DNA from: Burkholderiales bacterium
GTDB lineage: Bacteria > Pseudomonadota > Gammaproteobacteria > Burkholderiales > SG8-39
Reading direction: 5' to 3'
NCBI GenBank assembly: GCA_038904015.1
Contig: JBCKKZ010000001.1
Coordinates: 14,906-78,905 of the forward strand
Length of the DNA stretch: 64,000 nucleotides
Part shown: positions 10,489 to 30,359 of the stretch, piece after piece
How the letters are laid out: each line of letters begins with the position of its first letter
Position numbering within the stretch: position 1 is the stretch's first letter
Made by a program: the position numbers and the translations under genes
The notes under the pieces: model-generated
Told to the model about the DNA's origin: nothing
What the model saw: the letters and a program-made list of their open reading frames with translations, nothing else
The model's database searches: none

Positions 10489-10820
10489 TGGCGCGTGCCT
10501 ATGTTCCGCACACGGGCGACATCGTCTGGCTGGCATTTTCCCCGCAGGCAGGCCGCGAACAAGCCGGGCATCGGCCGGCGCTGGTTCTCAGCCCGGCGAG
10601 CTACAACGGCAAGACAGGCATGATGATCTGCTGCCCCATGACCACGCAGGTCAAAGGCTATCCATTCGAGGTGGTGGTCGGCAATCCCCCAAGCGCGATA
10701 CTTTCGGACCAGGTAAAGAGCCTGGATTGGCGGGCACGCCGTGCGAAGCGCAAGGGAACGGTCGCTGCCGATGCGCTCGGTGAAGTGCGAGGCAAGATCA
10801 AGGCGCTCATCGGAACATGA
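10485..10820 (+). CDS. mazF: MazF/PemK endoribonuclease toxin
   Basis: [32 protein letters not shown]...[14 protein letters not shown]...[11 protein letters not shown]. Confidence 0.85.
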
Positions 10821-10827
10821 TGCAAGC

Positions 10828-11207
10828 ATGAGTTCGAAAGGCCCGCGCAGGACGGTACTGGTGACCGGCGGCGCCGGCTTCATCGGCTCGCACCTGTGCG
10901 ATCGCCTGATCGCCGATGGGCACGACGTGCTGTGCGTTGGTGGAGGCGCTGGTGCGCCTGATGGCGACGGCGGATTCCTTGACCGGCCCCGTGAACCTCG
11001 GCAACCCGGCCGAATTCACCATCCTCGAGCTCGCCGAGAAGGTCATTTCGCTCATCAAGTCGAAATCAAAGCTGGTGCGCCGCCCGCGGCCGAGCGACGA
11101 TCCGATGCAGCGCAAGCCCGATATCGCGCTCCCGAAGAAGCGGTTGCATTGGATGCCGCGGACGCAGATCGATGCCGGGCTTCTAGCGACCATCCGTTAC
11201 TTCGGTA
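10828..11207 (+). pseudogene. Chimeric stump: galE codons 1-15 fused to uxs codons 16-37, joined to a divergent uxs 3' end after an internal deletion
   Basis: [15 protein letters not shown] matches the galE start at 21769. [22 protein letters not shown] is nearly identical at nucleotide level to uxs at 29440-29505. A frame jump then leads to [35 protein letters not shown]...[12 protein letters not shown]...TIRYF. Confidence 0.8.
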
Positions 11208-11214
11208 GATCTTC

Positions 11215-11440
11215 TTTGCTAAGGGCGCCACTGGCGCTGATTCCAAAATCTGCGGTGGTAACGGTCCGCTCCGGCATCAATCGGGGTCGTAAGTGGATCG
11301 TTGGCTCGAATACGCATGGCTGCTGGCTCGGACACTACGAAAGGCAGAAGCAGGAGTTGATTGGGCGACTAGTGAAACCAGGCATGACCGTGTTCGATGT
11401 GGGCGCAAACGCTGGCTTCTACACCCTGGCTTTATCTTCG
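11215..11440 (+). pseudogene. FkbM-family methyltransferase 5' fragment
   Basis: ...WLGHYERQKQELIGRLVKPGMTVFDVGANAGFYTLALS, read in frame out of the uxs stump, then breaks off. Confidence 0.5.
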
Positions 11441-11554
11441 ACTCGTGCGCTGGCGTGCGCCGGCGTGGATGATCACCACTGGTGGCCAGGCGTCACCTCG
11501 CCCGCAATGACGGTGCGATCGCGCGTGCCACGCGTGACCCAGCTGCATTTGTGG

Positions 11555-11737
11555 CTACTGACCGGACAGATAACCGAGCACCGCGTGCAGTGCGGCCCGC
11601 GTCTCGGCGAGCTTCTGCGCGCTCGGTACAAATGAGCCGGGTGTTCTCAACCTGACGTCGGCAAAGCGCGTCGGGGCCGGCACTACGTCGAAGCCAGCCT
11701 GCGCGAATAGCGGGACGGCGCGCAGCAAGTGCACCAC
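11555..11737 (-). pseudogene. DUF218 (YdcF/ElyC-like) 3' fragment
   Basis: ...LRAVPLFAQAGFDVVPAPTRF...FVPSAQKLAETRAALHAVLGYL resembles the C-terminus of that family. No N-terminal part is present. Confidence 0.35.
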
Positions 11738-11761
11738 GTCGACGCCGATCCAGCAGCGCGC

Positions 11762-12049
11762 CTACGACCTGCTCGGCGTTCGCCACATCCTGTAGCCAGA
11801 ACGGCGCAGGCGATTCGTCCCTAACCCGCGGTCCTTCGGCAATCCGGTCAAGCGCCCCGCGAGCAGCACGTTACCGGGCGCATTGGCCCATCGGAGATTG
11901 CTGGTGAGCGGAACGCAGACGAGCGTCGCAATTCGGCTCCGATTCAGCGCGTCACCCTGAACCACCACGACGGGTCGCCGCAGTCCGGGACCCGAGCCGG
12001 CGGGTTCGGGCAGATCGGCCCACCAGATCTCGCCCTGCGAGATCACCAT
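11762..12049 (-). pseudogene. MazF/PemK-type toxin with disrupted C-terminus
   Basis: MVISQGEIWWADLPEPAGSGPGLRRPVVVVQGDALNRSRIATLVCVPLTSNLRWANAPGNVLL...GLPKD, then unrelated residues. It is shorter than typical family members. Confidence 0.55.
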
Positions 12050-12279
12050 TCAATGCGCTTGAGGGCGCGGTGCGAAGCGGCAGCGACAAACCGATCCGGC
12101 TTGCCCCCGATCTCGGCACAGACACGGTCCATGGCATCGGTGACATCGTCAGGCGCGTGGCGCGCGACGTACTCCTTCAACGCGTCGCTGAAGACGCGGC
12201 TGCGTGACCTCCGCGTCCGCTGCGCGAGCTTCTGCGCGGCCGCCAAGAGGTCGTCCGGGATCGAAACGGCGGTTTTCAT
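12043..12279 (-). CDS. Ribbon-helix-helix (CopG) antitoxin of the adjacent MazF-type gene
   Basis: MKTAVSIPDDLLAAAQKLAQRTRRSRSRVFSDALKEYV... It overlaps the toxin start by 7 nt. Confidence 0.7.
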   Translation of the reverse strand: MKTAVSIPDDLLAAAQKLAQRTRRSRSRVFSDALKEYVARHAPDDVTDAMDRVCAEIGGKPDRFVAAASHRALKRIEW

Positions 12280-12403
12280 ACTGTCAGTATAACCCGGCGC
12301 CGCCACGCTCTGCCGGCCAGGATAAAGAGAGCGGGTCTTGCCCGGCGGCCGCGACAAATTCAGCCAGGCCCTTGTCGGACCGGGCGTTGCGCGATAGGAG
12401 TGC

Positions 12404-12441
12404 TTGACACATGTCAGACTGGTCTATACGCTAGTCTGACA
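12404..12441 (+). promoter_or_regulatory. Promoter and operator of phd-vapC (12461)
   Basis: TTGACA at 12404-12409. Perfect 9-bp inverted repeat TGTCAGACT (12412-12420) / AGTCTGACA (12433-12441) brackets a TATACG/TACGCT -10 region. AGGAG RBS at 12447. Confidence 0.55.
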
Positions 12442-12460
12442 GTTTCAGGAGTCAATCCGC

Positions 12461-12706
12461 ATGAAAACCGAAATCGGCGCCTATGAGGCCAAGACCAGAC
12501 TGCCCGAGCTGCTGCGGCAAGTAAAGGCGGGCAAGCGCTTTACGATCACCAATCGCGGCGAGGCGATGGCCGACCTCGTTCCCAGCGAGAGCGTGCAGCC
12601 GAAAGACAAGTCCGCCGCGGTTGAAAAGTTCAAAGCGTTCATGCGGAAAAACCCGGTGCGCGGCGTCGTGAACGTCAAGGATCTCATCGCAGAAGGCCGC
12701 GCGTGA
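12461..12706 (+). CDS. Phd/YefM-family antitoxin
   Basis: MKTEIGAYEAKTRLPELLRQVKAGKRFTITNRGEAMADLVP; 4-nt overlap with the PIN gene. Confidence 0.8.
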   Translation: MKTEIGAYEAKTRLPELLRQVKAGKRFTITNRGEAMADLVPSESVQPKDKSAAVEKFKAFMRKNPVRGVVNVKDLIAEGRA

Positions 12707-13134
12707 ACTTCGTCCTCGACGCCTCGGTGACGATATGCTGGCTGTTCCTCGACGGCAAGCCCGCCGCACGCGCCTATGCACTGAAAGTTCTGGATGCCAT
12801 GAAGCAAGCGCAGACAAGCGCGCTGGTGCCGGTGACGTGGGGGCTTGAAGTGTCCAACGTTATTGCCAAAGCGGAAGCGAAAGGTTTGGTCAGGGAGGCG
12901 CAAGGCGAAGCCTTCCTCGAAATGCTGCAGGGCGTGGACATCGGTTCGGACTCGGCAACGTTTTCCAGGGCGCTGTCGGATACGCTTCAGGTCGCACGCC
13001 GCCACCGACTCTCAGCCTACGATGCTTCGTATCTGGAGCTTGCCATGCGGGAGGGGTTGCCGCTGGCAACGCTCGATGAAGATTTGCAGAAAGCCGCCAA
13101 TAAGGCAGGTGTGAAGCGATTTGCAGTCAGATAA
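12703..13134 (+). CDS. vapC: PIN-domain toxin VapC
   Basis: MNFVLDASVTICWLF...SAYDASYLELA...LATLDEDL. Confidence 0.8.
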   Translation: MNFVLDASVTICWLFLDGKPAARAYALKVLDAMKQAQTSALVPVTWGLEVSNVIAKAEAKGLVREAQGEAFLEMLQGVDIGSDSATFSRALSDTLQVARRHRLSAYDASYLELAMREGLPLATLDEDLQKAANKAGVKRFAVR

Positions 13135-13142
13135 GCGCTCCA

Positions 13143-13280
13143 TCATGTTCGTTTCATAGAAACGCGCAGACGCAGGCCGCACAAACAATCCAGACCACGC
13201 CCATAGAACTGTACTGGTTTCAGGTAGCGCAACGTGTGCCAGTAGCGGGCCAGCGGCGCGAGAGTCTTGCCGCTCAACAT
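13143..13280 (-). pseudogene. Heparinase II/III-like protein 5' fragment
   Basis: The minus strand reads MLSGKTLAPLARYWHTLRYLKPVQFYGRGL..., the characteristic N-terminus of EPS-locus heparinase II/III-family proteins. It stops after about 45 codons. Confidence 0.4.
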
Positions 13281-13290
13281 TGCCCTCTGG

Positions 13291-13713
13291 CTACTTTTCG
13301 ACGCCAAGAGACGAGAATGGATTCCTGATCAGGAGCCCATCAATCCGCTGCCCGTCCTGCAGGTCCTCCGAGTACAGGGTATCGCACCCAGCCAACAGGG
13401 CAGCGGCGACGATCATCGAGTCATAGATAGACAAGCCGCGACGCTCGGCGACATCGAGTCCGCGCGCATGGGTCTCAACGGTGACCGGCTCGACGGCGCA
13501 AATCGACCGAATCGGTTCCAGGCACTCGCGGATCTCCGCAAGCGGCATGCGCAGTTTCCGCGACGCCACCGACGCGAACTCGTTCAACACCTGGACGCTG
13601 ACCCGGCCCCCCTCTGCGACCAACTCTTCCGCCCGTTGCGCCTTTGCAGAGTCCGCGGACAGCAGATAAAGCAGAATGTTGGTATCGAAAAACTTCTTAC
13701 TTCCCGCGCTCAT
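13291..13713 (-). CDS. vapC: PIN-domain toxin VapC
   Basis: MSAGSKKFFDTNILLYLL...VLNEF...SIYDSMIVAAALLAGCDTLYSEDL. Confidence 0.8.
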   Translation of the reverse strand: MSAGSKKFFDTNILLYLLSADSAKAQRAEELVAEGGRVSVQVLNEFASVASRKLRMPLAEIRECLEPIRSICAVEPVTVETHARGLDVAERRGLSIYDSMIVAAALLAGCDTLYSEDLQDGQRIDGLLIRNPFSSLGVEK

Positions 13714-13933
13714 GCGCTTCGAGGCGATCAAACCTGAAATCGGCCGGGAGACGCCCACGGTATTTTCTCAGCCGCGCCAGGAGTTCTCGCGCACCCGGTT
13801 TCCTCCTCACTTCCAGGGAACGGGCGCCGGCAACGCCAATCTCGATGTCGTCGCCCTCCTTGAGGTCCAGGGCCTCCACCACCGCAGCCGGCAAACGCAG
13901 CGCCAGGCTATTTCCCCACTTTGCCACATGCAT
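13697..13933 (-). CDS. vapB: AbrB/SpoVT-type antitoxin VapB
   Basis: MHVAKWGNSLALRLPAAVVEALDLKEGDDIEI. It overlaps the vapC start. Confidence 0.8.
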   Translation of the reverse strand: MHVAKWGNSLALRLPAAVVEALDLKEGDDIEIGVAGARSLEVRRKPGARELLARLRKYRGRLPADFRFDRLEAHERGK

Positions 13934-13952
13934 GGCATCCTCCGCCTAAGAA

Positions 13953-13977
13953 GATATACATTTTTGGATTGTATATC
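13953..13977. promoter_or_regulatory. Inverted repeat GATATACA-N9-TGTATATC upstream of vapB (13933)
   Basis: Perfect 8-bp arms at 13953-13960 and 13970-13977 in an AT-rich patch 20-45 nt upstream of the vapB start. Confidence 0.4.
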
Positions 13978-14049
13978 ATAGCCTGGCGCCAAAAATTCAA
14001 TGAGCTAAACCCGGGTTGGGCGCTCGGCGGCGAACCCCGGACATTCAGC

Positions 14050-14436
14050 CTAGATGTGAATGACCGAATCCGAGTAGCGCGCGACGATTGGATCATGCGT
14101 CATCAGCCTCAGCGGCTCAACAATGGCTTGGGCGACGAGAATACGGTCGAACGGATCCTGATGATGTGGTGGCAGCGTCTCGACCGCGGCCGCGTGAGCT
14201 GCGGTCACGGGGAGCAGCTGGTAGCCTGCGCCGTCAAAGAAATTCAGCGCTTCACGTGCCGAGACAGGCATTTCGCCGCGTCCGAGTGAATGCTTGATGG
14301 CGATTTCCCAAATGCTCGCAGCGCTGATCCAGATATTGTTTTGAGTCGAGGCGATTTGCGCCCGCGCTTCCGTCGGCAGCCGCGGGCTATCCACGATCGC
14401 CCACAACGCAACGTGCGTATCCAGCAGCAGATTCAA
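14050..14436 (-). CDS. vapC: PIN-domain toxin VapC
   Basis: MNLLLDTHVALWAI...SIWEIAIK...HHQDPFDRILVAQA. It belongs to the same subfamily as 9744-10130. Confidence 0.85.
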   Translation of the reverse strand: MNLLLDTHVALWAIVDSPRLPTEARAQIASTQNNIWISAASIWEIAIKHSLGRGEMPVSAREALNFFDGAGYQLLPVTAAHAAAVETLPPHHQDPFDRILVAQAIVEPLRLMTHDPIVARYSDSVIHI

Positions 14437-14681
14437 GGCGCTGCGCCACCTTGAAACAAACGGGCGACTGCATCATTGTTCGCGTCGATGGTGTCGGGCA
14501 CCTCGAAGGAACCCTTCGCGATACCCAAACGCAGACCCGCCTTGGTGGCGCCGATGGGAACCAATTTCGCCGCAGGCCGGCCATTGCGGGCAATGATGAT
14601 TTCTTGCTCGCGCCCTTGCTCAATAGCAGCTACCAGGCGGGATAACGTGGATTTGGCTTCCAACATATTGACAGATTGCAT
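14433..14681 (-). CDS. Phd/YefM-family antitoxin
   Basis: MQSVNMLEAKSTLSRLVAAIEQGREQEIIIARNGRPAAKLVP; 4-nt overlap with vapC. Confidence 0.8.
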   Translation of the reverse strand: MQSVNMLEAKSTLSRLVAAIEQGREQEIIIARNGRPAAKLVPIGATKAGLRLGIAKGSFEVPDTIDANNDAVARLFQGGAAP

Positions 14682-14989
14682 CGCAACCTCCTTCTGTGAT
14701 GCTTAGTCTAGTCTGGCTAAGTTATGGCGTCAAGTTTACTGATCGTGGTCAATCTACGAAGGGCGGCGGCGAAGCAAAGCAGTTTGCTTCGCCGAAACCC
14801 CACCTCCCGTGTCCCCGACCAGATCGGGGATCCAGCGGCGTTCCTGTACTCACATACCACCGGGAATAAGACCCTACGCCTTCGGCTTCGACGCCACCTG
14901 CCCAAGCATCGACGTCGTCTCCGGCATCACACTGAACTGCGGCATGCTCTTGAACGCGCGGCACCTGCCGTGGCCCCCACCAATGCCAA

Positions 14990-15184
14990 CAAAATCTTGT
15001 ACTGATCCCACATACCGCTTTCACGCGCCACATAGGCAAAGGCAGCGAAGGCAACGAGCGCAACACCGCCAGAATTACCGTCGATGCCATCGATCATGTT
15101 GATGGCATTGATGACACCGATCACAGCGGACACGGACATCGGCACCACAAATATCCACATGCTGATCGACCGCCATCCAAGCAA
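14990..15184 (-). pseudogene. Fragment of a WecA/MraY-type (GT4 polyprenyl-phosphate sugar-phosphate transferase) gene
   Basis: ...VIGVINAINMIDGIDGNSGGVALVAFAAF... is the signature NxxNxxDGIDGL loop. Only about 65 residues remain. Confidence 0.5.
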
Positions 15185-15248
15185 CTCGCCGACAGTATTC
15201 AGTTGGACATCCGCGAGATAAGAAGTGGCTCCGACCGACCGCCGTAGA

Positions 15249-15734
15249 CTACTCTTTCCGGTTCCGCGTACCGGACCCGAGCGTTTTCACCAGCCGCATA
15301 TCGAAGGGAAACTTGGCAACGCCCACGATAGCGAGCCGTGCCGCATCGCGATGCGTCGGATTGATGAGCCAGTTCCTGGAATTCGGCACGATGGCGCTCG
15401 GCACGCTCAGCAACGCGGCCCTGCCCTGGCGCAGCCATGCATCGCCGATGGCTCTGGTCATCGCGATATCCTGGAACCATTCCCCGACGAGAAGCGAGTC
15501 GCTTACCGTCTCGCGGAGAATTCGGTCCCGCACCTCGATTTCCAGCAGTTGATAGCGGCTTGGCATTCCACCCCAAAATTCGATTTCGAGATGCACGAGC
15601 GCTTCCAACAACGCAAGTGCAGGATGCTCAGCCGTGTAAACGATTGCGTGGCCCGGCGAGTGCCATCGCCCGCCCGCCCGTAGTCCTCCTCCGCCGGACA
15701 ACTCGGCGTGATTGCTGATGCGCCAGAGCTTCAA
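15249..15734 (-). CDS. RES-domain toxin (NAD+-targeting family)
   Basis: MKLWRISNH...GGRWHSPGHAIVYTAEHPALALLEALVHLE...LSVPSAIVP...NWLINP. Confidence 0.8.
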   Translation of the reverse strand: MKLWRISNHAELSGGGGLRAGGRWHSPGHAIVYTAEHPALALLEALVHLEIEFWGGMPSRYQLLEIEVRDRILRETVSDSLLVGEWFQDIAMTRAIGDAWLRQGRAALLSVPSAIVPNSRNWLINPTHRDAARLAIVGVAKFPFDMRLVKTLGSGTRNRKE

Positions 15735-15749
15735 GGCCGCAACGGATTG

Positions 15750-16214
15750 CTAGGCAAAGTAGCCTTCGTCAACGCGAGTCAGAAGTTCCTCGACCAAGCG
15801 CGCGCCGGCCTCCGTCCGAACCATCTCGAGCGCACACATGCCTTTGAACTGCTTCTTCGGGACGCGCAGCCAATCGAGCGCCTTGGCATGCTCGCCGAAA
15901 ACAATGTCCGCCAAGGCGACAATCCGTGCCAGACGCAACGCCCGATCGGACTCTTCGACGCTCAGCCGCTCGTTCCTGGCGATGCGGTGAGACAGCGTAC
16001 GGGGGGGAATGATGAATGCCAGATCCTCGCCGCGCATCCCTGCCGCGGCGAGGTGTCTCAATACCTGCGGCGCCAGGCCATTGCGGGCCATCGCTGCCAC
16101 CGCAAGCTCCGATTTTGGAAACGTACGCAGCCCGAGCACCTCGGCGATTCGCGTCAACAGTGAAGACCCGAATGCCGATGCCGGCTCAGGAGAGAATTCC
16201 AAGACTGCAGACAT
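15750..16214 (-). CDS. Xre/MbcA/ParS-type antitoxin (DUF2384) of the RES toxin
   Basis: Start is the ATG that is the reverse complement of 16212-16214, preceded by GAGG. The C-terminus ...WLRVPKKQFKGMCALEMVRTEAGARLVEELLTRVDEGYFA is typical of the family. Confidence 0.75.
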   Translation of the reverse strand: MSAVLEFSPEPASAFGSSLLTRIAEVLGLRTFPKSELAVAAMARNGLAPQVLRHLAAAGMRGEDLAFIIPPRTLSHRIARNERLSVEESDRALRLARIVALADIVFGEHAKALDWLRVPKKQFKGMCALEMVRTEAGARLVEELLTRVDEGYFA

Positions 16215-16304
16215 GGAGTACCTCGCAGTAGATAGCAATTTGCCTTAATCATACCGGCATCTTGCTACCACGGCAATTCGAGACAAAGCTCGAGACAAAG
16301 CGCA

Positions 16305-16700
16305 TCACGTAGTAGCAGGCGCGTGTAAGCTTGTGAGCGACCGCTTTGATCGCCGCCGGCTGTCCACGCAGCGGCTGTAGGAGGCAAATTGCCCGGCCTG
16401 GGCAAAACGCTCACTTCGACTTCGAGTCTCCCGCCGCGTTGTTCCGCGTGCTGACGCCCCCAAGCGCTGGGAAGCGAGTCTGGAACCCGCCAAGTCCGCA
16501 GGATGAACTTCCGGCGCCGGTGCCGGCGGCACGACCTCGGTGTCCCAGACCTGGGCAAACGGATCGGCTCGCGAGCGCCAATAGCGCCGAGGGTTCTGTG
16601 AGGGCAGCGTCACCGAGCTCTCGATGCGGCGCGCGGCTCGCGCTCACCGATGCCGGCCTTGGCCGCGGCCAGTTCTTGTGATCTGAGCCCGCCATCTTGA
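16305..16700 (-). pseudogene. Frameshifted 5' remnant of a DDE (integrase-core) transposase
   Basis: Two minus-strand frames give ...ELAAAKAGIGERE... and ...PRRYWRSRADPFAQVWDTEVVP.... These resemble the HTH and RxWRTRxDPF N-terminal region of a transposase family I recognise but cannot name with certainty. Confidence 0.3.
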
Positions 16701-16776
16701 ACCCCACCAACCCGGCACCGCCGGTGGCTCGTCGTCTACGGCGGTTACGCCGCCTTCGACTCCTCACCACCGGCCA

Positions 16777-16980
16777 TCATGGTTGTCGTTCGACCGGACA
16801 AGATGATTGTCGCGCCCCAGGACGGCCCATCCCGGGATGCCGTTGCAGGGCCTTCACGCCCCGCCGGATTGCCCGCACAGCCCGTCGTGCGGCGTCAGGG
16901 TTCTTGGGTGCCAGGAAAGCATGCAGTCGCGCTACATCGACATCGGCTAACCCCGGCGGCGGCCATCTCAGCCGTGGCAT
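16777..16980 (-). pseudogene. parE (RelE/ParE toxin) 5' fragment, copy C
   Basis: MPRLRWPPPGLADV..RLHAFLAPKNPDAARRAVRAIRRGVKALQRHPGMGRP, then unrelated residues. Homologous to 28798-29034. Confidence 0.6.
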
Positions 16981-17165
16981 TCAGGCGCTTGCGCATCCTC
17001 GCCCGCTTCCAGCCGTGCCAGCCAGGCGTCGGCCTCCTCGGCCGTGACGTGCAGGCCGCTCGCCTGGTAGCTCGCCCAGGCATCGAGCGCGGCCTGACGC
17101 AATGCTTCGCGCTTCTCTTCACGATCAACGTACTGCTACGGACCGGGCGGCTCGCCGCCTGTCAT
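16968..17165 (-). pseudogene. parD remnant, copy C (RHH domain deleted, in-frame TAG)
   Basis: Reverse complement reads ATG ACA GGC GGC GAG CCG CCC GGT CCG TAG, then QYVDREEKREALRQAALDAWASYQASGLHVTAEEADAWL... Confidence 0.65.
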
Positions 17166-17213
17166 CTGTCACGTGAAATACAATCCCCACCGTGGAAGGG
17201 GAGCCCGGGGGCC

Positions 17214-17862
<649 letters not shown>

Positions 17863-18109: not shown

Positions 18110-18400
18110 ATGCGTCTCGACGAGAAAACACGCGAAGAAATCCGCCGGGCGGCATGGCGTTTCTTTGGCGCTGACGTCTACCTTTTTGGCTCGCGTGCGG
18201 ACGATGCCCGTCGCGGCGGCGATATCGATCTGTACATTGAAGCCGGGCTCTCGCCCGAGCAGGCAGTGCGCGCGCGCCTGGCAATGCTCGCGCACCTGTC
18301 CCGGCGCATCGGCGAGCGCAGAATCGACCTCGTGCTGAACACCCGCGGGCGCGACGATGGAATCTATCAGGTGGCCCGGCGCGAGGGCATCAAACTGTGA
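18110..18400 (+). CDS. Minimal nucleotidyltransferase (MntA-like antitoxin)
   Basis: YLFGSRADDARRGGDIDLYI is the GSx(n)DxD motif. 96 aa; 4-nt overlap with the HEPN gene. Confidence 0.75.
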   Translation: MRLDEKTREEIRRAAWRFFGADVYLFGSRADDARRGGDIDLYIEAGLSPEQAVRARLAMLAHLSRRIGERRIDLVLNTRGRDDGIYQVARREGIKL

Positions 18401-22729: not shown

Positions 22730-22739
22730 AGGAAGCGCT

Positions 22740-23024
22740 CGACCGGGCTCGCCAGAATCCGGAGCAATCGCGCCGGCAAAGATCGGAATCTTCGTACCGA
22801 GGTCAAACGGCAGCGTCGAATCCGCGACCTCGACCAGAAGCAGGACATCCGCAGCCGTCGGATGCGAGGTGGAATTACGGACTTCCGATCGGCGCCCTCT
22901 CGACGATCTCCCCTTCGATCAGCTCCAGGCGCGCCTCGGGGGCGAACACGCCCGCCTCGCCCATGCGCAAGTACTCCTGCGCGCTGACGGTGTGACGCTG
23001 CGGGTATTCGAGGACCGCGCTCAT
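22740..23024 (-). pseudogene. Uma2-family (DUF820) endonuclease, degenerate
   Basis: MSAVLEYPQRHTVSAQEYLRMGEAGVFAPEARLELIEGEIVERAPIGSP, then a stop. Another frame continues ...LLLVEVADSTLPFDLGTKIPIFAGA... Confidence 0.5.
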
Positions 23025-23313
23025 CGAAGTCTATGGCCTGTCGTTCGTCTCGATCGCGATCTTACCCCCCCCGGACGCATGGGCCAGCAGGCCACGGCCG
23101 TTTCGGGGTCACCGTTTCGGGGTCTTTAGTTTGCAGACGCGCTCCGGCTTTCCAGTGGCCGTCAATACAAGACCTGCAAACTCAAGCCCTGACCCCATCG
23201 CCGCACGCGGCGATCCCGGCACGCGTGTCTTGCCGCACTTGCGAAGAATCTTGAGCAGAAAAACTGTTACGGAAAAACCTGCCTGAATATACCTGTTCAT
23301 ATATAATTCAAGC

Positions 23314-23496
23314 ATGGGCGACAAAGAAAAACCGCTCGAATGGATAGCAAGCAGCCACAAAGACCTGATGGCATTCCAGAAGAAGAGCAAGCGCGGGATC
23401 GCCACGCCGACAGCGGACATGGACATCGTTCGCGCAAGGCTCAAAGTAGCCGAGGCAATTGCAAAGGAGTTACGAGATGAAAAAACGAGTCATTGA
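23314..23496 (+). pseudogene. HigB/Gp49-like (DUF891) toxin with internal deletion
   Basis: The 60-aa product joins the family N-terminus (KPLEWIASSHKDLMAF) directly to its C-terminus (QKKSKRGIATPTADMDIVRARL). The central core is missing. Confidence 0.55.
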
Positions 23497-23812
23497 CGGT
23501 GTTGAAGTGCGGCGCAGTTCGGGCAACGTGTATGCTGATCTTGGCGTGCCTGATGCGGAAAAACTCAAGATCAAGACCGGCCTGGTGATTGAGATCAGAA
23601 AAGCCATGCGTCGCCTTGGGCTGACTCAACAACAGGCAGCCAGGCGGATGAGGGTAACGCAGCCAAAGGTGTCCGACATGATGCGCGGCGACTTCTCCAA
23701 CTTGTCCGAACGCAAGCTGATGGACTGTTTGAATCGGCTTGGCTATGACATCGAAATAAAGGTGATGCTCGCCACAAAACCGGTCGGCCATATAATGCTG
23801 GCCGTCGCTTGA
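23477..23812 (+). CDS. XRE-family HTH antitoxin (HigA-like)
   Basis: ...SSGNVYADLGVPDAEKLKIKTGLVIEIRKAMRRLGLTQQQAARRMRVTQPKVSDMMRGDFSNLSERKLMDCLNRLGYDIEIKV. Confidence 0.7.
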   Translation: MKKRVIDGVEVRRSSGNVYADLGVPDAEKLKIKTGLVIEIRKAMRRLGLTQQQAARRMRVTQPKVSDMMRGDFSNLSERKLMDCLNRLGYDIEIKVMLATKPVGHIMLAVA

Positions 23813-23920
23813 CGAGGCTGATTTCTCCCGGGCCTGCCTGGTACTGGTCAGACCGCGTGGGGCACCATAACCAGAGCAGTCTGGAGTTGACCCGTTTCCG
23901 TGGACGGTTTGCCACTTGGG

Positions 23921-24140
23921 TCATAAGCGGTTATCCACAGGCTCGGGCGCGGGCGCCCAGTACGCCACCGCGCGCCCGGGCCTGTGGGTAACCGCGCGCT
24001 CGTGGTGCGTTGAATGACGGCGCTCGAACTCGACCGGCGAGATCCTGCCAAGGCTCGAATGACGCCGTGTGGGGTTGTACCAGCCTTCGATGAACTCGAA
24101 GATCGCCATGCGCGCAGCGGCCGGGGTCACGGTGCGCTTC
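23921..24140 (-). mobile_element. IS3-family transposase (OrfB) C-terminal fragment
   Basis: ...AAARMAIFEFIEGWYNPTRRHSSLGRISPVEFERRH. No upstream catalytic region is present. Confidence 0.55.
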
Positions 24141-24170
24141 GCGCGCTTCTTCGGCTTCGCGGTTTTCTTG

Positions 24171-24845
24171 TCACTGCGGCGGGAAACGCAGCCTCGAAAA
24201 CGCTCGCCCGGCCAGAATCGCACGGCGCTCGATCTCCGCCGCCGATTCGATCCAGCCCTTCTGCTCAAGGAAAATGAGGAACGCCCGCGTGCTGATCTTG
24301 CGGCAGTTGTCGGGCACCAGAAAACCGGCACGCGCAATCTTGTGGTCCTCGAACAGGAATACGCCGGTCGTTGGCGATTCCATGAGCGCGAATTGGCTCA
24401 TCGCCTCCTGGATCGCCAGCTCGCCGAGGCATGACCGACCAACCCGGCTTGAACAGCACGTCGAGGGCGTCGGCGTAGGCGAGCGTAATGAGCGGCCCGG
24501 CATCGGGCAGCAGAGCAACATCCTGAGGCGCCGACATCGCGTTCCCGGCTCAAAGCGTCGGCAGCGACCCCAGTTGATCGACCATTTCTTGAGTCGACGC
24601 CTCCGGCAGCCTCGGCAGCGGCAGATGCGCTTGCGCCATCAACAGGAACAGGTCTTCCTCGCTGTCGACACCCAGCGCGCGCATGGCCTCATCGCCCGAC
24701 AGCCGCCCCAGAGAGAAATCGAGCAGGACCGTGTAATTCTGGTTGCCGGAGGTTTCGGCGGCCTCGAAGGTCTCAACCAGAAACCGCGATCGCGGCCGCG
24801 AATTGCCTCAGGCCACTGCTGGCGGAGAACCGCCTGCACCATGTC
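24171..24845 (-). pseudogene. Decayed two-gene module of unknown family (both reading frames broken)
   Basis: Upstream gene: MVQAVLRQQWPEAIRG... shifts frame into ...NYTVLLDFSLGRLSGDEAMRALGVDSEEDLFLLMAQAHLPLPRLPE. Downstream gene: MSAPQDVALLPDAGPLITLAYADALDVLFKPGW shifts into ...GELAIQEAMSQFALMESPTTGVFLFEDHKIARAGFLV... Confidence 0.25.
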
Positions 24846-24858
24846 CGTGACATCCCGA

Positions 24859-25905
24859 TCAGCGCAGTTCGTACCAGACGCCCCGACCGCTACCGTGCTG
24901 GTTCAGGTATCCGCGCTTGACCAGCGCACGGAAGTGCTGCTTGAGCGTGTTGCGGCTGGCGCCGGTCAGCTTGACGGCCTCACCGATTGTGACGCGGCCA
25001 TGCTCCCGGGCAAACTCGACAATCCGCAACGAGAGACCGGGCAGCGAGGCCAGCACCAGCTTTTCCCGCTCGACCTTCTTCTCCAGCCGGCGAACCTGCT
25101 CTGCCAGGGAACGCAGGAAGAACGCGAGCCAGGGCTGCCAGTCGGGCGCCTCGGTGCGGATCGTGCCCTGGGTCTGCCTCAGCGCCAGGTAGTAGGCTTC
25201 CTTGTTCTGCTCGATCACACTCTCCAGCGAGCTGTACGGCACGTAGGCATAGCCCGCCCGCATGAGCAACAGCGTCGTCAGCACGCGGCTGAGCCGGCCG
25301 TTGCCATCCTGGAACGGGTGGATCTCCAGAAACACCACGACGCACAGGGCAACGATCAGCAGCGGATGCAGGCGGCCCGCCGCGAGCTGTTCCTGTACCC
25401 AGGCGACCAGTTCGGTCATCAGACGCGGGGTGTCGAAAGGCGTGGCTGTCTGGAACACGATGCCGATCTGCACGTCGTTCTCGTCGAAGGCGGCGACGCT
25501 GTTCGAATGGGTCTTGTAGTTGCCGCGATGCCAGGTGTCCTTCTCGCTGTAGCGGAGCAGGATCTGGTGCAACTGCTTGATGTAGTTCTCGGTGAAGGGA
25601 ATGTCCTGCCATGAGGTGAACGCCAGATCCATCAGCTCGGCATAACCGGCCACCTCCTGCTCGTCGCGGGTGGCGAAGGACTTGATCTCCAGATTCGACA
25701 GCAACTGCTCCACCTCGCGGTCGGACAGCTTGCTGCCCTCGATGCGGGTGGAGGAACCAATGCTTTCGATGGTGGCGACGCGGCGCAGGGCCGACAACCG
25801 ATCGGGCGCAAGCGTACCCAAGGCTCGCCAGGCGCCTTTGAACTCGTCGATCCTGGCGATCAGGCTCAGGATCTCCGGGGTGATCTGGATGGTGTCGGAC
25901 CGGAG
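24859..25905 (-). CDS. Fic-family protein (AMPylase-type) with C-terminal wHTH
   Basis: Canonical Fic motif HPFQDGNGRLSR. Fic_N-like N-terminus (IARIDEFKGAW). C-terminus ...IGEAVKLTGASRNTLKQHFRALVKRGYL. Confidence 0.85.
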   Translation of the reverse strand, partial: LRSDTIQITPEILSLIARIDEFKGAWRALGTLAPDRLSALRRVATIESIGSSTRIEGSKLSDREVEQLLSNLEIKSFATRDEQEVAGYAELMDLAFTSWQDIPFTENYIKQLHQILLRYSEKDTWHRGNYKTHSNSVAAFDENDVQIGIVFQTATPFDTPRLMTELVAWVQEQLAAGRLHPLLIVALCVVVFLEIHPFQDGNGRLSRVLTTLLLMRAGYAYVPYSSLESVIEQNKEAYYLALRQTQGTIRTEAPDWQPWLAFFLRSLAEQVRRLEKKVEREKLVLASLPGLSLRIVEFAREHGRVTIGEAVKLTGASRNTLKQHFRALVKRGYLNQHGSGRGVWYELR

Positions 25906-26063
25906 CATGCAACCAATAATACGCCCAATTACACCCAAAACTACGCCGCCGAATTGGCGCGGGAGCCGTCGCGCCACACGGTCGGCATCGCCGGCGGTCA
26001 CCCTCGTGATTACCCCGAGCGGGGTGGTGCGGAAGAGCGTGTCTGCGCCGGCTCGCGGGCGCG

Positions 26064-26993
26064 GTGTGGTCGGCGGGGTATACCGGCAAGGGCATCACCG
26101 TGGCGGTGGTGGATACCGGGGTGGATCGAGGGCATCCGGACCTGAAAGGAGCGGTCCTCGCCTCCAGGAACTTCACGGAGGAATCGGCCAAGGACATGGT
26201 GGGCCACGGGACCCACGTCGCCGGCGCCATCGCCGGCCGCGGCAACCTCTATCGCGGTGTGGCGCCTGATGCCAAGGTGCTTGCAGCCAAAGTGCTGGGC
26301 GTCAACGGCGGGACCGACACCGATGTCGTCGCGGGTTTGAGCTGGGCGGCGGCGCAGGGGGCGCAGGTCATCAATCTCAGTCTTGGCGGTCGCGGCACGC
26401 CGGACGATATCCTGAGCCGTGAATGCGATGCGTTGATGCGTGAAGGGATCGTGGTGTGCGTGGCGGCCGGCAACGAAGGCCCCGGCAAGGGGACCATTGG
26501 CTCACCGGGCATGGCCCGCGAGGTCATCACGGTGGGGGCGGTGGACAAACAGAAGGCCGTAGCCTTTTATTCCTCGCGCGGCCCCGTCCGCTACAAGGGA
26601 AAAACGATTCGCAAGCCGGACCTGCTCGCCGTGGGCGGTGGCATCGCGCGGCGCGCCGCGTGTCCCTACGAGCCGGGCATCGGATCAGCCCGCAGCCGTG
26701 TCCTGTCAACTTCCGCCTGTGACCTGACGGCTCCGGCTCGCCGGTCTCGACCGGCCAGGCCAAAGTATCTCCGCATGTCCGGCACCTCCATGGCCACGCC
26801 CCAGGTGGCGGGCGCCTGCGCGTTGCTCCTGGAGGCGGTTGGCGTGAAGCCGGGTGCGCCGGACCCGACGCTGGCCGGCACGATCAAACGGGTGCTCACG
26901 CAGACCGCCGAGAGCTTGGGGCTACCCCGTGATGCGCAGGGCGCCGGCCTCCTCAACGCCCGGAAAGCTCTGGCGGCTCTCAGGAAAACGTGA
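26064..26993 (+). CDS. S8 (subtilisin-like) serine peptidase, lacking signal peptide and propeptide (probably 5'-truncated)
   Basis: Catalytic triad contexts VAVVDTGVD, GHGTHVAG and SGTSMATP. An in-frame stop at 26007 leaves no room for a leader or prodomain. Confidence 0.7.
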   Translation: MWSAGYTGKGITVAVVDTGVDRGHPDLKGAVLASRNFTEESAKDMVGHGTHVAGAIAGRGNLYRGVAPDAKVLAAKVLGVNGGTDTDVVAGLSWAAAQGAQVINLSLGGRGTPDDILSRECDALMREGIVVCVAAGNEGPGKGTIGSPGMAREVITVGAVDKQKAVAFYSSRGPVRYKGKTIRKPDLLAVGGGIARRAACPYEPGIGSARSRVLSTSACDLTAPARRSRPARPKYLRMSGTSMATPQVAGACALLLEAVGVKPGAPDPTLAGTIKRVLTQTAESLGLPRDAQGAGLLNARKALAALRKT

Positions 26994-27122
26994 CCTCCAT
27001 TTTGATGATAAGCGAGGCGGTGAAGCGCGCCGTCACGCCCCGCTGAGCGATGCGCTGAGTGGATCGGGGGGTTCAGTGATTGACTGCCGCCGCAGGCGGC
27101 GCGGTGGTGGCTTCTTGCCCAG

Positions 27123-27497
27123 CTACTTCCGCTTGATCAAGAACTCCTCCCGCTTCGCCCCCGCCTTTTCCCTTTCCTTAAGCCACTTCGGCGTCAGGCC
27201 GCGCCCCGACCATGTCGCCGCGGACTGGGGATCGCGGTATTTCGGCGCAACCTTGCGCTTCGCGCGGCCCTTCGCGTTCGCGCCTTTCTTGCCCGCGGGT
27301 CGGCCCGGTCCCGGCCTGGCATTACCGCCCGCCGCGCGTTTGCGCGAGGGCTTCTGCAATTCCTCGAGCGTAATGCCGTAGTCGGCCATTTTCTGGCGAA
27401 TATCGGCGATCACTGCCCGGGCCTCCTTGCTGCGGCGTTTCGCGGCGAGGCGCTGCAGGCGTTGGATTTCACCGAGCAGGTTCTTGTAGCTTTTCAT
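27123..27497 (-). CDS. H-NS-family nucleoid-associated protein
   Basis: N-terminal coiled coil, a basic linker, and C-terminus KYRDPQSAATWSGRGLTPKWL (the TWSGRG motif). Confidence 0.8.
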   Translation of the reverse strand: MKSYKNLLGEIQRLQRLAAKRRSKEARAVIADIRQKMADYGITLEELQKPSRKRAAGGNARPGPGRPAGKKGANAKGRAKRKVAPKYRDPQSAATWSGRGLTPKWLKEREKAGAKREEFLIKRK

Positions 27498-27653
27498 ATT
27501 TCACTCCCCTGATTTCGACTTTACAGCGTCGACCTGCGAAATTCTACCGTGCGTCCGTTCCTTCAAGAGCGCCCAATTCGCTCCTTGCTCTTAGCTACTG
27601 CAATCGCTAATATCCGCCGTTCATCGTTTGAACAGCCCCCCCCGACCCGCATG

Positions 27654-27989
27654 TCCTCCCACGAAGAAGCCCATCTCCGCATCCTCAAAATCGTCAGCGG
27701 GGAACCGGATGTCAGCCAGCGTCAATTAGCCGCAAAGCTTGGCGTCAGCCTGGGCAAGACCAATTTTCTGATCAAGGCCCTGCTCGAGAAAGGCTTGCTC
27801 AAGGCCGGCAACTTCCGGCGCGCGGAGAACAAGTTCAAGTACGTCTACCTCCTCACCCCCAAGGGTTTCGGAGAACGAGTCCGCCTCACCCGCGCCTATC
27901 TCGCGCGCAAGGAGGCGGAGTACGGGGCGCTGCAGTCCGAGATCCAGGCGCTGCGACAGGAAGTAAAGACCACCCATGAAGCCCGCTGA
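27654..27989 (+). CDS. MarR-family EPS-associated transcriptional regulator
   Basis: MSSHEEAHLRILKIVSGEPDVSQRQLAAKLGVSLGKTNFLIKALLEKGLLKAGNFRRAENKFKYVYLLTPKGFGERVRLTRAYLARKEAEY. Confidence 0.8.
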   Translation, partial: SSHEEAHLRILKIVSGEPDVSQRQLAAKLGVSLGKTNFLIKALLEKGLLKAGNFRRAENKFKYVYLLTPKGFGERVRLTRAYLARKEAEYGALQSEIQALRQEVKTTHEAR

Positions 27990-28479
27990 TCTTCCGGCGC
28001 CGCAGACCTGGTACGTGGTGCAGGCGAAGCCCCGGCAGGAGGCGATCGCATGCGAGCACCTCTCCCGGCAGGGCTTTCGCTGCATCCTGCCGCTGCTCAA
28101 GGTCGAGAAGATCCGCCGTGGTCGGCGGCTGTGGGCGGAGGAGCCGCTCTTCGCGCGCTACCTTTTCATGACTCCGGCTCACGCGCAGGCGCGCTGGGGT
28201 GCGGTGCGCAGCACCCGGGGCGTATCGAGATTGGTCGAATTCGGCGGTCTGCCCGCGCGCCTGCCGGCGCACTGGATGGAAGCGTTTCAGGAGCGCGAGC
28301 ACGCGCTGCGGCGCCTGTTCGCGCCCGGGGAGCACGTGGTCGTGACGCGGGGTCCGTTCGCCGGAATGCAAGGGGTGTACAAATTGCCCGACGGCGAGGA
28401 GCGCGCCGTCGTGATGCTGGAGCTGCTGGGCAGGGAGTGCAGGGCGAAGTTCGGACTGGAAGCGCTTCGGGCGGCGTAG
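27976..28479 (+). CDS. rfaH: RfaH/NusG-paralog transcription antiterminator
   Basis: NGN domain WYVVQAKPRQEAIACEHLSRQGFRCILPL...EPLFARYLFM, and KOW-like GEHVVVTRGPFAGMQGVY. Confidence 0.8.
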   Translation: MKPADLPAPQTWYVVQAKPRQEAIACEHLSRQGFRCILPLLKVEKIRRGRRLWAEEPLFARYLFMTPAHAQARWGAVRSTRGVSRLVEFGGLPARLPAHWMEAFQEREHALRRLFAPGEHVVVTRGPFAGMQGVYKLPDGEERAVVMLELLGRECRAKFGLEALRAA

Positions 28480-28539
28480 GCGGGAGGCGTGGAAGTTTGG
28501 GCAGGAAGCGTTTTTTTGGAATCCGACGCGTAATCCAAG

Positions 28540-28551
28540 GGCGGTAGCGTG
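28540..28551 (+). promoter_or_regulatory. ops element (JUMPStart core) GGCGGTAGCGTG
   Basis: Exact match to the GGCGGTAGnnTG consensus. It is intergenic, in sense orientation, 60 nt after rfaH and upstream of the glycan operon. Confidence 0.75.
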
Positions 28552-28591
28552 CCCGGAGGGGATTGATTCTCTTGAATCTGGATCACTACTG

Positions 28592-28795
28592 TCCGGAGAA
28601 GTGGTGCATGCTTTCGAGCGCGCCACAGGCAAGAAGGTGCCCTACCGGATCGTGGAGCGGCGGCCCGGCGACGTCGCCATCTGCTACGCCGATCCCGGCC
28701 TCGCCCATGCCGCGCTTAACTGGCGGGCGACCTGTTCGCTCGAGGACATGTGCCGCGACGCCTGGAACTGGCAGCAGTCAAGTGCGGGCGCCTGA
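28592..28795 (+). pseudogene. galE 3' stump, copy 3
   Basis: (E)[64 protein letters not shown]. Homology starts abruptly about 40 nt after ops. Confidence 0.85.
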
Positions 28796-28797
28796 AT

Positions 28798-29034
28798 TTA
28801 CGCCGCGATGACGTCAGAGCGTTGCCTCAATAGCCGGCTTCCCGGGTATCTCGCACAGCGAGAATCACGGCCTCGCACCGGACGGCCCATCCCGGGATGC
28901 CGTTGCAGGGCCTTCACGCCCTGCCGGATTGCCCGCACAGCCCGTCGTGCGGCGTCACGGTTCTTGGGTGCCAGGAAAGCATGCAGCCGGACTACATCGG
29001 CTAACGCCGGCGGCGGCCATCTCAGCCGTGGCAT
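28798..29034 (-). pseudogene. parE (RelE/ParE toxin), copy A; C-terminal core apparently replaced
   Basis: MPRLRWPPPALADVVRLHAFLAPKNRDAARRAVRAIRQGVKALQRHPGMGRPV, then RGRDSRCARYPGSRLL... This tail does not look like the ParE beta-sheet core. 78 aa is short for the family. Confidence 0.5.
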
Positions 29035-29306
29035 TCAGGCGCTTGCGCCTCCTCGCCCGCTTCCAGCTGTGCCAGCCAGGCGTCGGCCTCCTCGGCCGTG
29101 ACGTGCAGGCCGCTCGCCTGGTAGCTCGCCCAGGCATCGAGCGCGGCCTGACGCAATGCTTCGCGCTTCTCTTCACGATCGACGTACTGCTGAATCGCCT
29201 CACGCATGAGCCAATGTGCCGAGCGCTGACGCGCGGCGGCGAGACGCTGCACGCGCTCTTTGATTTCGGTGTCGAGCTTCAAGCTGGTAGTGGATGGCGA
29301 TGTCAT
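29022..29306 (-). CDS. ParD-like ribbon-helix-helix antitoxin (intact copy A)
   Basis: SLKLDTEIKERVQRLAAARQRSAHWLMREAIQQYVDREEKREALRQAALDAW... It overlaps the parE start by 13 nt. Confidence 0.7.
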   Translation of the reverse strand: MTSPSTTSLKLDTEIKERVQRLAAARQRSAHWLMREAIQQYVDREEKREALRQAALDAWASYQASGLHVTAEEADAWLAQLEAGEEAQAPECHG

Positions 29307-29396
29307 CGCTGTGCCGCTGGTGTTACCTATTGCTACTTTAACTCACATCTGTCACATGAAATACAATCCCCACCGTAGAAGGGGAGCCCGGGAGCC

Positions 29397-30359
29397 ATGA
29401 GGAACTACAGCATCCGCAAGCGCGTGCTCGTCACCGGCGGCGCCGGCTTCATCGGCTCGCACCTGTGCGATCGCCTGATCGCCGACGGGCACGACGTGCT
29501 GTGCGTGGACAACTTCTTCACCGGCACCAAGGACAACATCGCGCAGCTGATCGGTAATCCGCATTTCGAACTGATGCGCCACGACGTGACGTTTCCGCTG
29601 TTCGTTGAAGTGGACGAGATCTACAACCTCGCCTGCCCGGCGGCGCCGATCCACTACCAGTACGACCCGGTGCAGACCACCAAGACGAGCGTGCACGGCG
29701 CTATCAACATGCTGGGGCTTGCCAAGCGCGTGAAGGCGAAGATCCTGCAGGCCTCCACCAGCGAGGTCTACGGCGACCCCAAGGTGCACCCCCAGCGCGA
29801 GGACTACTGGGGCAACGTGAACCCGATCGGCCTGCGCGCCTGCTATGACGAAGGCAAGCGCTGCGCGGAGACGCTCTTCTTCGACTACCACCGCCAGCAC
29901 AAGCTGCGAATCAAGGTGGCACGTATCTTTAACACCTACGGCCCGCGCATGCACCCGAACGACGGGCGCGTGGTGTCGAACTTCATCGTCCAGGCGCTCA
30001 AGGGCGAGCCGATCACCGTCTACGGCGACGGCGGCCAGACACGCTCGTTCTGTTACGTGGACGATCTGGTCGAGGCGCTGATCCGCTTGATGGCAACAAA
30101 GGATAGCGTCGCCGGGCCGGTCAATCTGGGCAATCCGGGTGAATTCACCATTCTCGAGCTGGCGCAAAAGGTGATTGCCCTGACGCGCTCGAAATCCAGG
30201 ATCGTGAAGAAGAAATTGCCCAGGGACGACCCGCGGCAGCGCAAACCGGACATCGCCCTCGCCAAGCGCCACCTGTCGTGGCAACCCACGGTCGGGCTGG
30301 AAGCGGGTCTGAAGAAGACCATCGCCTACTTCCGCGCCGGCAAGACCAGCACGGCCTGA
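29397..30359 (+). CDS. uxs: UDP-glucuronate decarboxylase (UDP-xylose synthase, SDR family)
   Basis: [18 protein letters not shown]...STSEVYGDP...[11 protein letters not shown]...NTYGPRM...[14 protein letters not shown]. Full-length, 320 aa. Confidence 0.9.

Follow-up and report, generated by a model that had tools for sequence, protein, structure and literature searches.

How do toxin-antitoxin (TA) modules come to be stacked at the head of an exopolysaccharide (EPS) operon, with broken copies of the operon's own first genes standing between them? The question is raised by a 64,000-nucleotide stretch of DNA from a Burkholderiales bacterium (assembly GCA_038904015.1, contig JBCKKZ010000001.1, positions 14,906 to 78,905 of the forward strand; referred to here as the window). 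In it, truncated pieces of galE and uxs ('stumps') recur upstream of an intact uxs gene, and TA and candidate defence genes lie between them. An earlier note on this DNA, made from the sequence alone, interpreted the stumps as scars of repeated insertion at a conserved galE-uxs junction acting as a reusable docking site. Our analysis confirms the observation itself and partly supports the interpretation. We consider it probable that the locus is a recombinase-free recombination hotspot at the EPS operon head, where a series of imports found their anchor in the operon's conserved first genes, ended in illegitimate joins and brought TA modules along as hitch-hikers.

A self-BLASTN analysis of the window, together with repeat finding and using as reference the copy that adjoins the intact uxs (copy M), recovered every repeat that had been claimed. 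They are plus-strand direct repeats located at 10.8 to 30.3 kb, and their E-values (1e-8 to 1e-144) exclude chance as their origin. The stumps are called here, from left to right, D, A, C, B and M (Table 1). Their native-type copies are 95-98.5% identical over 100-320 nt. The uxs gene at 29397-30359 is intact, as had been stated: its Pfam match is full-length and the members of its cluster at 90% identity or more are named UDP-glucuronate decarboxylase (JGI). The three galE 3' ends (18854-19124, 21986-22225 and 28598-28795) were rightly described as near-identical and as followed by different DNA; they share 96.6-98.5% identity pairwise, and in all three homology is lost within 0-5 nt of the stop codon. 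The uxs leader also recurs as reported, with 17 codons at 17163-17263 and 14 codons at 22416-22507, both copies 96-98% identical to 29346-29446. What had been read as a galE 5' end at 10828 proves to be a chimera of the galE leader and uxs, followed by a foreign uxs 3' end. The two genes are fused inside the Rossmann motif that they share (VLVTGG), and positions 10855-10937 are 95% identical to 29424-29506.

Several of these pieces do not derive from the resident genes. In agreement with the earlier note, different alleles are represented by the two truncated uxs 3' ends (10938-11207 and 17263-17862). The first, in stump D, has about 64% amino acid identity to the resident uxs. In the second, in stump A, the middle of the gene is native (98-100% amino acid identity to alleles of the lineage) and the C-terminal third is foreign (73%), being as distant from the resident uxs as from the uxs of many unrelated Proteobacteria. 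The galE 3' end at 22508-22729, correctly singled out as divergent, has about 52% amino acid identity to the other galE copies and is joined in frame to the uxs leader and 14 codons of stump B. The view of the stumps as recombination scars is upheld, and the foreign uxs and galE alleles mark the sugar-nucleotide genes as entry points. The spacer between antitoxin and uxs in stumps A and B matches the allele found upstream of uxs in two of the sibling assemblies described below (S1 and S2) and not that of the active copy in the window.

At its right end each block carries remnants of the galE-TA-leader segment followed by a uxs 5' piece. Going from left to right, the native-type stumps become more similar to the active copy (95.2%, 96.0% and 97.8% for the uxs 5' pieces; 96.6% and 98.5% for the galE 3' pieces). 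A tblastn analysis with all open reading frames (ORFs) of the flanks and of the relatives identified galE and uxs pieces as the only glycan-gene stumps inside the island; a Glycos_transf_4 fragment occurs only in an additional 438 bp in S1. In stump B, the galE stop codon now coincides with a perfect hairpin (CCTGAA-GTGGCA-TTCAGG, 22215-22240) that arose through loss of the toxin gene.

To define the insertion site, the window was compared with related genomes, all of them draft assemblies. In six relatives (L083, L084 and L087-L090; approximately 72-87% nucleotide identity) the Sel1-repeat gene and uxs stand back to back, with neither galE nor TA genes. A 79-aa galE stump, used as query for homologues, gave only short matches (55-139 aa) and led to a seventh relative, L081, in which a full-length galE is followed by uxs 47 bp further on. 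Since galE is absent from six relatives and intact in only one, it is itself an accessory arrival outside any conserved junction, and the conserved galE-uxs junction proposed as the site has to be replaced by one in which the Sel1-repeat gene lies directly beside uxs. The borders shift accordingly from the suggested 10815-29460. A fourth copy of the uxs leader motif, AATACAATCCC, is present at 8545-8555 and marks the true left border; homology of the window to the empty site runs to 8592, ending at the expected position of the uxs ATG; and the first TA cargo begins already at 9508. The island therefore extends from about 8593 to 29345 (20.8 kb) and lies at the uxs start codon, in the gap from which the Sel1-repeat gene and uxs diverge.

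A wider scan of a genome collection with uxs returned at least 80 loci, those listed having 83% identity or less; the best match among them was a metagenome-assembled genome of Usitatibacter (83%). Among the same loci there was no close match to galE and none to the junction TA or RfaH queries.

Closer comparisons come from five sibling assemblies (S1-S5) found by exact-protein look-up and about 99% identical to the window in the cargo that they share. In S1 (GCA_038904115.1) a single contig corresponds to positions 1-21496 of the window and keeps the order of stumps D, A and C and of cargo I-III. It differs by three indels in cargo I, and its left arm is 80-95% identical to the window at 4000-8500 while the flanking DNA is 98.6-100% identical (L091); the export arm (wzc-wza-porin-Sel1) has thus undergone allelic replacement between the two. 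A second S1 contig (contig 45) matches 22787-27001 and then diverges into a 209-aa galE stump, another RHH allele and a pair of uxs 5' stumps, both of which precede a further epimerase gene. It continues into a different glycan cluster, and H-NS, MarR_EPS and RfaH are absent. The S2 assembly (GCA_038903895.1) carries a collapsed form in which a galE 5' stump directly precedes uxs, and has an extra ParE-like TA pair between uxs and asnB. Both S3 and S4 lack positions 4317-8554 of the window. In S3 stump D is a different deletion derivative, which keeps the middle part of uxs lost in the window and has lost codons that the window keeps; stumps therefore decay independently in near-identical strains. 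S1 also contains an extra 824 bp in cargo I (L082, 3088-3911) with second copies of 13053-13130 and 16748-16819 (98-99% identical), which are duplications within the island between cargo blocks.

In S5 (GCA_038904415.1; L094, 4-4834) two TA pairs (RHH/PemK and MazE/PemK) and DUF4143 fragments lie between two copies of MarR_EPS, each with about 85% nucleotide identity to the gene in the window. The stump-and-stack pattern is thus repeated with another head gene, and because MarR_EPS is the duplicated piece here, the property belongs to the operon head and not to galE and uxs specifically. Overall, the interval between the conserved flanks is empty in six relatives, occupied by galE alone in one and differently filled in the five siblings, which supports the earlier reading. 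It also turns over rapidly: between the window and S1 there are the three indels, a segment of 1.6 kb present in one only, a different glycan cluster downstream and different alleles in the left arm.

The joins were inspected at base-pair resolution. Those designated J1, J4, J5, J8 and J10 lie beside a homologous anchor at GC-rich microhomologies of 4-18 nt (raw lengths, as read from the sequence), as in illegitimate joins. For example, the first uxs deletion in stump A lies between two copies of CCGGCGGCGCCG (12 nt); its switch from native to foreign sequence falls in a match of about 10 nt within the conserved motif encoding GPRMHP; the join of uxs codon 14 to galE is at CTCG(T/G)CACCGGC; the galE-uxs join falls within about 18 nt of Rossmann-motif sequence; and the left edge of stump C is at GCTC. 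Among the joins inspected there was no common core sequence. The extent of the stumps varies, with the galE 3' copies beginning at 18854, 21986 and 28598 and the uxs stumps breaking off at codon 14, 17 or 37. By sequence, the joins appear to be illegitimate joins at short GC-rich matches together with crossovers in conserved stretches of paralogous SDR genes. Mosaic alleles of the type produced by polysaccharide-locus exchange occur both in stump A, with its switch at a conserved motif, and in S1, where uxs 5' stumps stand directly upstream of other epimerase genes. This picture differs from that of a defined docking site: the breakpoints are irregular microhomology joins, the stumps are eroding pseudogenes, and MarR_EPS is the gene duplicated in S5.

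We also searched for machinery that could have assembled the island. No tRNA or tmRNA gene (tRNA search) and no Rfam match was found in the window, and an inverted-repeat search, made without a dedicated attC model, identified no attC-like recurring family. Pfam scans of the window's ORFs and the precomputed Pfam annotation of the sibling loci revealed no integrase domain, whether of a tyrosine or a serine recombinase, the sole related match in the ORFs scanned being an rve remnant at 23921-24337. The statement that the island is neither an integron nor targeted to a tRNA gene therefore holds. An integron or chromosomal cassette array was rejected as a candidate (IntI not found, no attC-like hairpins, cargo on both strands), as was an integrase island at a tRNA gene or gene 3' end (no tRNA or tmRNA, no integrase, variable stump extents). 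A plasmid or phage origin was likewise rejected: the only matches were 400 nt of higBA to Xylella plasmids and weak uxs matches, and there were none to phages.

From the repeats, empty sites, foreign alleles, microhomology junctions, sibling variation and absence of a recombinase, all observed directly, we infer an order of events, a physical mechanism and a reason for the accumulation of TA modules. The ancestral site would have been the very short stretch separating the divergently oriented Sel1-repeat gene and uxs, into which DNA of other strains and of more distant donors entered repeatedly. Each import would be anchored by homologous or homeologous pairing in the conserved first genes of the operon (uxs and galE; MarR_EPS/rfaH in a sibling) and its other end joined illegitimately at a short stretch of GC-rich microhomology. 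Imported DNA would bring its own copy of the head genes, so that each event leaves the truncated resident copy as a stump. Older material would be pushed leftwards as new material stacks at the active uxs copy; this fits the observations because blocks end on the right with remnants of the galE-TA-leader and uxs 5' segments and similarity rises from left to right. The stumps would then erode by microhomology-mediated deletion. As passengers, the imports would carry TA modules of type II and a small number of candidate defence genes (SoFic and the PDC-S01 ATPase). We also infer that TA modules persist because they are addictive or selfish, and that frequent exchange of the EPS locus provides their transfer route; this is consistent with the clustering of TA modules in high-turnover spots (PMC13617665) and with the exchange of polysaccharide loci through flanking genes (PMC6249986). 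Homologues of the MNT/HEPN pair of cargo II with 73-75% identity also speak for the hotspot: those that we looked up come from two other lineages, and in each the pair stands within an EPS locus of this type, in one case between a Sel1-repeat gene and GT4-porin-Wza-Wzc genes and in the other in a TA stack adjoining MarR_EPS-RfaH.

Two physical routes could produce this outcome. One is one-sided homology combined with an illegitimate join. In the other, an illegitimate join would first circularise the fragment, which would then integrate by a single crossover; this second route explains the duplicated anchor more naturally. Several points weigh against the import hotspot as just described. Simple one-sided homology models place the illegitimate join outside the shared homology and not inside uxs codons 14-37, and some events may therefore require a circular intermediate or unequal sister exchange. 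The sequence points to no particular transfer mechanism (transformation, transduction or conjugation). For each stump, the left-to-right gradient of identity depends on 2-10 substitutions, and gene conversion could blur it. No other contig shows composite stump B with its joins. In addition, a 61% homologue of the MNT/HEPN pair of cargo II is located in a housekeeping context, so the EPS association is not general for this family.

An extension of the hotspot explanation, which we regard as unlikely, is that the stump-bounded blocks behave as recombinase-free cassettes. RecA recombination between stumps would loop out a circle with one stump and its cargo, and this circle (or its linear equivalent) would enter the next strain through a single crossover with any copy of an EPS head gene. 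If so, the conserved head genes of glycan operons would be a shared address for TA and defence genes, and the system would work like an integron while needing neither integrase nor attC. The presence of the closest MNT/HEPN relatives in other EPS loci would then be a trace left by this traffic.

Could the series have arisen entirely in place, by tandem duplication of a galE-TA-uxs segment through unequal or microhomology-mediated sister exchange, followed by divergence, deletions and independent TA insertions, with no homologous import? The stumps are all collinear, neighbouring native-type copies are the most alike (A-B 98.2%, B-M 97.6-98.5%, A-M 95-96%), A and B carry the same variant of the antitoxin-uxs spacer, and microhomology joins are typical end points of duplications and deletions. 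Yet three of the stump pieces are foreign alleles (52-73% amino acid identity) and the blocks between the stumps have no sequence in common (self-BLASTN). Import is required both by the difference between the window's active antitoxin-uxs spacer and that upstream of uxs in S1 and S2 and by the different downstream glycan cluster and divergent left arm of S1. In-place duplication alone is disfavoured by the foreign alleles (stumps A and D and the galE end at 22508) together with the S1/S2-type spacer of A and B, and we think it quite improbable.

Still less credence can be given to an assembly artefact, in which strain variants of one locus were threaded through repeats of 100-320 nt into a chimeric contig. 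The window does come from an 81-kb NCBI contig, the siblings are fragmented drafts, and the S1 assembly breaks at the equivalents of 21496 and 22787, on either side of stump B, whose joins occur in this contig alone. The independent S1 contig nevertheless reproduces the order of stumps and cargo up to the first of these breaks, the left border and stump D are confirmed by S3 and S4, and cargo V by contig 45 of S1. Moreover, joins of 4-18 nt are too short to mislead an assembler, and the repeat copies are distinguishable because they differ by 2-5%. Finally, site-specific accretion at the galE 3' end, by integrase-bearing islands or integron-like cassettes that each supply a replacement 3' end and leave an att-type duplicate as at tRNA and tmRNA genes, is very hard to credit: the uniform loss of homology 0-5 nt from the stop codon resembles a fixed att boundary and cargo V has its rve remnant, but they are accompanied by no tyrosine or serine recombinase domain in the ORFs scanned and by no shared core, attC-like hairpin family or tRNA, the galE left edges and uxs end points vary, and cargo orientation is mixed.

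The import hotspot has several known counterparts, and the claim that no comparable system had been described was too strong (PMC6249986, PMC10250203, PMC13617665, PMC3541774). Polysaccharide loci are exchanged through conserved flanks such as galF/gnd in Klebsiella and dexB/aliA in the pneumococcus (reviewed in PMC6249986). As in those cases, genes at the edge of a glycan locus supply homology for the import of foreign DNA, crossovers inside them yield mosaic alleles, and near relatives carry different clusters (S1 and the window). Here, however, there is no clean replacement and at least six truncated copies of the anchors are preserved in series; the accumulated material is TA and defence genes instead of glycan genes; and the anchors are the operon's own first genes and not housekeeping flanks. 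Defence hotspots flanked by core genes and without a dedicated mobile element are represented by cDHS1 of P. aeruginosa (PMC10250203), and TA modules cluster in spots of high turnover (PMC13617665). Our locus resembles both in its fixed position between conserved genes, empty in some relatives and variably filled in others, in rapid turnover among close strains, in the lack of a single type of mobile element and in the erosion of TA genes. Those studies infer flank-mediated recombination that is expected to be scarless, whereas here scars are kept and breakpoints can be read at base-pair resolution; in addition, this hotspot lies inside an EPS locus and not beside a tRNA or tmRNA gene.

Homology-facilitated illegitimate recombination, in the natural-transformation literature, combines a one-sided homologous anchor with a join at GC-rich microhomology. 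The locus shows foreign DNA beside a homologous anchor, joins at GC-rich microhomologies of 4-12 nt, and foreign pieces of 52-86% identity joined to native ones. It differs in that the anchor is duplicated and not replaced, a poor fit to simple replacement, and in that several joins lie inside the shared homology; furthermore, that process is tied to the uptake of linear DNA by natural transformation, which for this organism would be an assumption. The term itself occurs in PMC6382021. The TA cassette arrays of chromosomal integrons (superintegrons) are similar in combining many TA modules in a long array with recurring short sequences between them, and TA addiction may stabilise both; in our locus, unlike these, there is no intI, attC or common promoter, cargo lies in both orientations and the recurring sequences are gene fragments of variable extent. 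Lastly, ntaAB, a Fic/Doc-type TA at the capsule locus of non-encapsulated pneumococci, is accompanied by glycan pseudogenes and may aid persistence of the locus (PMC3541774). It shares with our locus a TA module inside a polysaccharide locus alongside such pseudogenes but is a single pair, without serial stumps or stacking.

Three things are new here: the scars survive as a series, the anchors are the first genes of the operon itself (including Rossmann-motif sequence common to paralogous SDR genes), and the cargo at an EPS operon head is dominated by TA genes, in several lineages. The locus documents well a hotspot of a kind already known; it is not a new system or molecular machine.

The features of the locus are listed in Table 1. 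Pfam, NCBIfam and PADLOC scans of the ORFs, by which the cargo was annotated, place the whole window in an EPS locus.

Table 1. Features of the EPS locus and its island, in window coordinates.
Feature	Position	Strand	Composition and basis
Left (export) arm		-	Wzy-like, CpsB, Wzc, Wza, EpsL-like porin, Sel1-repeat protein
Sel1-repeat gene	7571-8629	-	Pfam Sel1; final conserved left-arm gene; synteny in L081, L083-L090
Left border	8540-8592	+	Original uxs upstream region, empty-site type; alignment and BLAST against L089, L090
First cargo block	8592-10820	both	Pfam; 99.7% in S1, S3, S4
HTH regulator	8592-8969	-	Pfam
Small ORF	9135-9467		RHH-like by eye; without Pfam match
Phd/PIN	9508-10130		Pfam
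MazE/MazF	10246-10820		Pfam
Stump D	10815-11207	+	galE leader and ~15 codons; uxs codons ~10-37; foreign uxs 3' end
Cargo I	11208-16819	both	Five TA pairs; Pfam and S1 gene calls
MazF-like/RHH	11762-12357	-	Cargo I
Phd/PIN	12461-13134		Cargo I
PIN/MazE-type	13291-13933	-	Cargo I
PIN/Phd	14050-14681	-	Cargo I
RES/Xre	15249-16238	-	Cargo I
Stump A	16820-17862	+	Toxin and RHH remnants; uxs leader and 17 codons; two internal uxs deletions; reaches uxs stop codon
Cargo II	18110-18849	+	MNT/HEPN pair; weak Pfam matches
Stump C	18854-19124	+	galE last 90 codons; begins 4 nt past HEPN stop codon
Cargo III	19162-21755	both	MazF with truncated antitoxin, AAA_14/DUF4143 ATPase, small ORFs
MazF with truncated antitoxin	19162-19527 (MazF)	-	Cargo III
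AAA_14/DUF4143 ATPase	19789-21123		Cargo III; PADLOC candidate PDC-S01
Stump B (composite)	21756-22729	+	galE leader and 72 codons; galE last 80 codons; truncated RHH antitoxin; uxs leader and 14 codons; foreign galE 3' end
Cargo V	22730-27001	both	22787-27001 99% identical to S1 contig 45
HigB-like/HigA	23314-23812		Cargo V
IS3-type rve remnant	23921-24337	-	Cargo V
Fic protein	24859-26001	-	Cargo V; PADLOC SoFic
Truncated S8 subtilase	26064-26993		Cargo V
Segment missing from S1	27002-28597		H-NS, MarR_EPS, RfaH
H-NS	27123-27497	-	In segment missing from S1
MarR_EPS	27549-27989		TIGR04176; EPS-operon regulator
RfaH	27976-28479		TIGR01955, above its cut-off; EPS-operon regulator
Stump M	28598-28795	+	galE last 65 codons
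Junction TA	28798-29306	-	Toxin-like ORF 28798-29034 (no family match); RHH/RelB-like antitoxin 29022-29306
uxs leader and intact uxs	29346-30359 (ORF 29397-30359)	+	First conserved right-arm gene
Right (biosynthesis) arm		+	uxs, AsnB-GT4 fusion, ABC transporter genes, glycosyltransferases, sugar-modifying enzymes, interspersed insertion sequences

Adjacent small toxin and antitoxin genes, as expected for type II TA modules, were found for three Phd/PIN pairs and for MazE/MazF, RHH/MazF-like, MazE-type/PIN and Xre/RES. Further pairs are MNT/HEPN (weak matches) and HigA with a small upstream ORF, and several modules are truncated. Cargo genes lie in both orientations. The statement that every interval carries conflict genes is correct in that TA or defence genes do lie between the stumps; in interval V, the stretch 27549-28479 encodes MarR_EPS and RfaH, which are regulators of the EPS operon. 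Similarly, a TA-like pair does follow the galE 3' end of stump M, on the minus strand and with a toxin-like ORF that has no Pfam match. Within the HigB-like/HigA pair, 400 nt (23364-23763) have 80.6% nucleotide identity to a RelE/ParE-XRE module of Xylella fastidiosa plasmids.

The H-NS-family gene (27123-27497) adjoins MarR_EPS and RfaH, an arrangement that could pair a xenogeneic silencer with an antiterminator at the operon head. AAA_14/DUF4143 ATPase genes also occur at several sites in or beside sibling EPS loci (L085, 2821-5292 and 14672-15823; L091, 1-816; L092, 3764-4891), where they look as if independently inserted. In the cpsB/wzc gap (3221-3311) there is an imperfect palindrome of about 91 nt, 87% self-complementary, and S4 (L093, 2927-3016) also matches it in reverse orientation. 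Downstream of uxs, a 990-aa fusion of an AsnB-type amidotransferase (XrtA/PEP-CTERM amidotransferase-like) and GT4 is encoded at 30363-33335; it also follows uxs in L081 and L083, and in S2 the Asn-synthase part alone is called (368 aa). The biosynthesis arm further contains four transposase genes (three DDE_Tnp_1 and one ISL3, at 33390-37268, 45388-46470 and 52167-53612) and segments of 38-44% GC (at 40-42, 48-49 and 51-52 kb), which indicate further mosaic acquisition downstream.

The building of TA and defence islands at fixed chromosomal spots where no mobile element is visible is still mostly inferred, and clean flank-mediated recombination leaves no trace. In this locus the process can be read because truncated anchors, joins resolved to the base pair, foreign alleles and near-identical siblings at different stages have survived. 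Its practical value is that of a worked example and a source of testable predictions. It suggests that the heads of EPS operons, which are often exchanged, can serve as routes for the spread of selfish TA modules.

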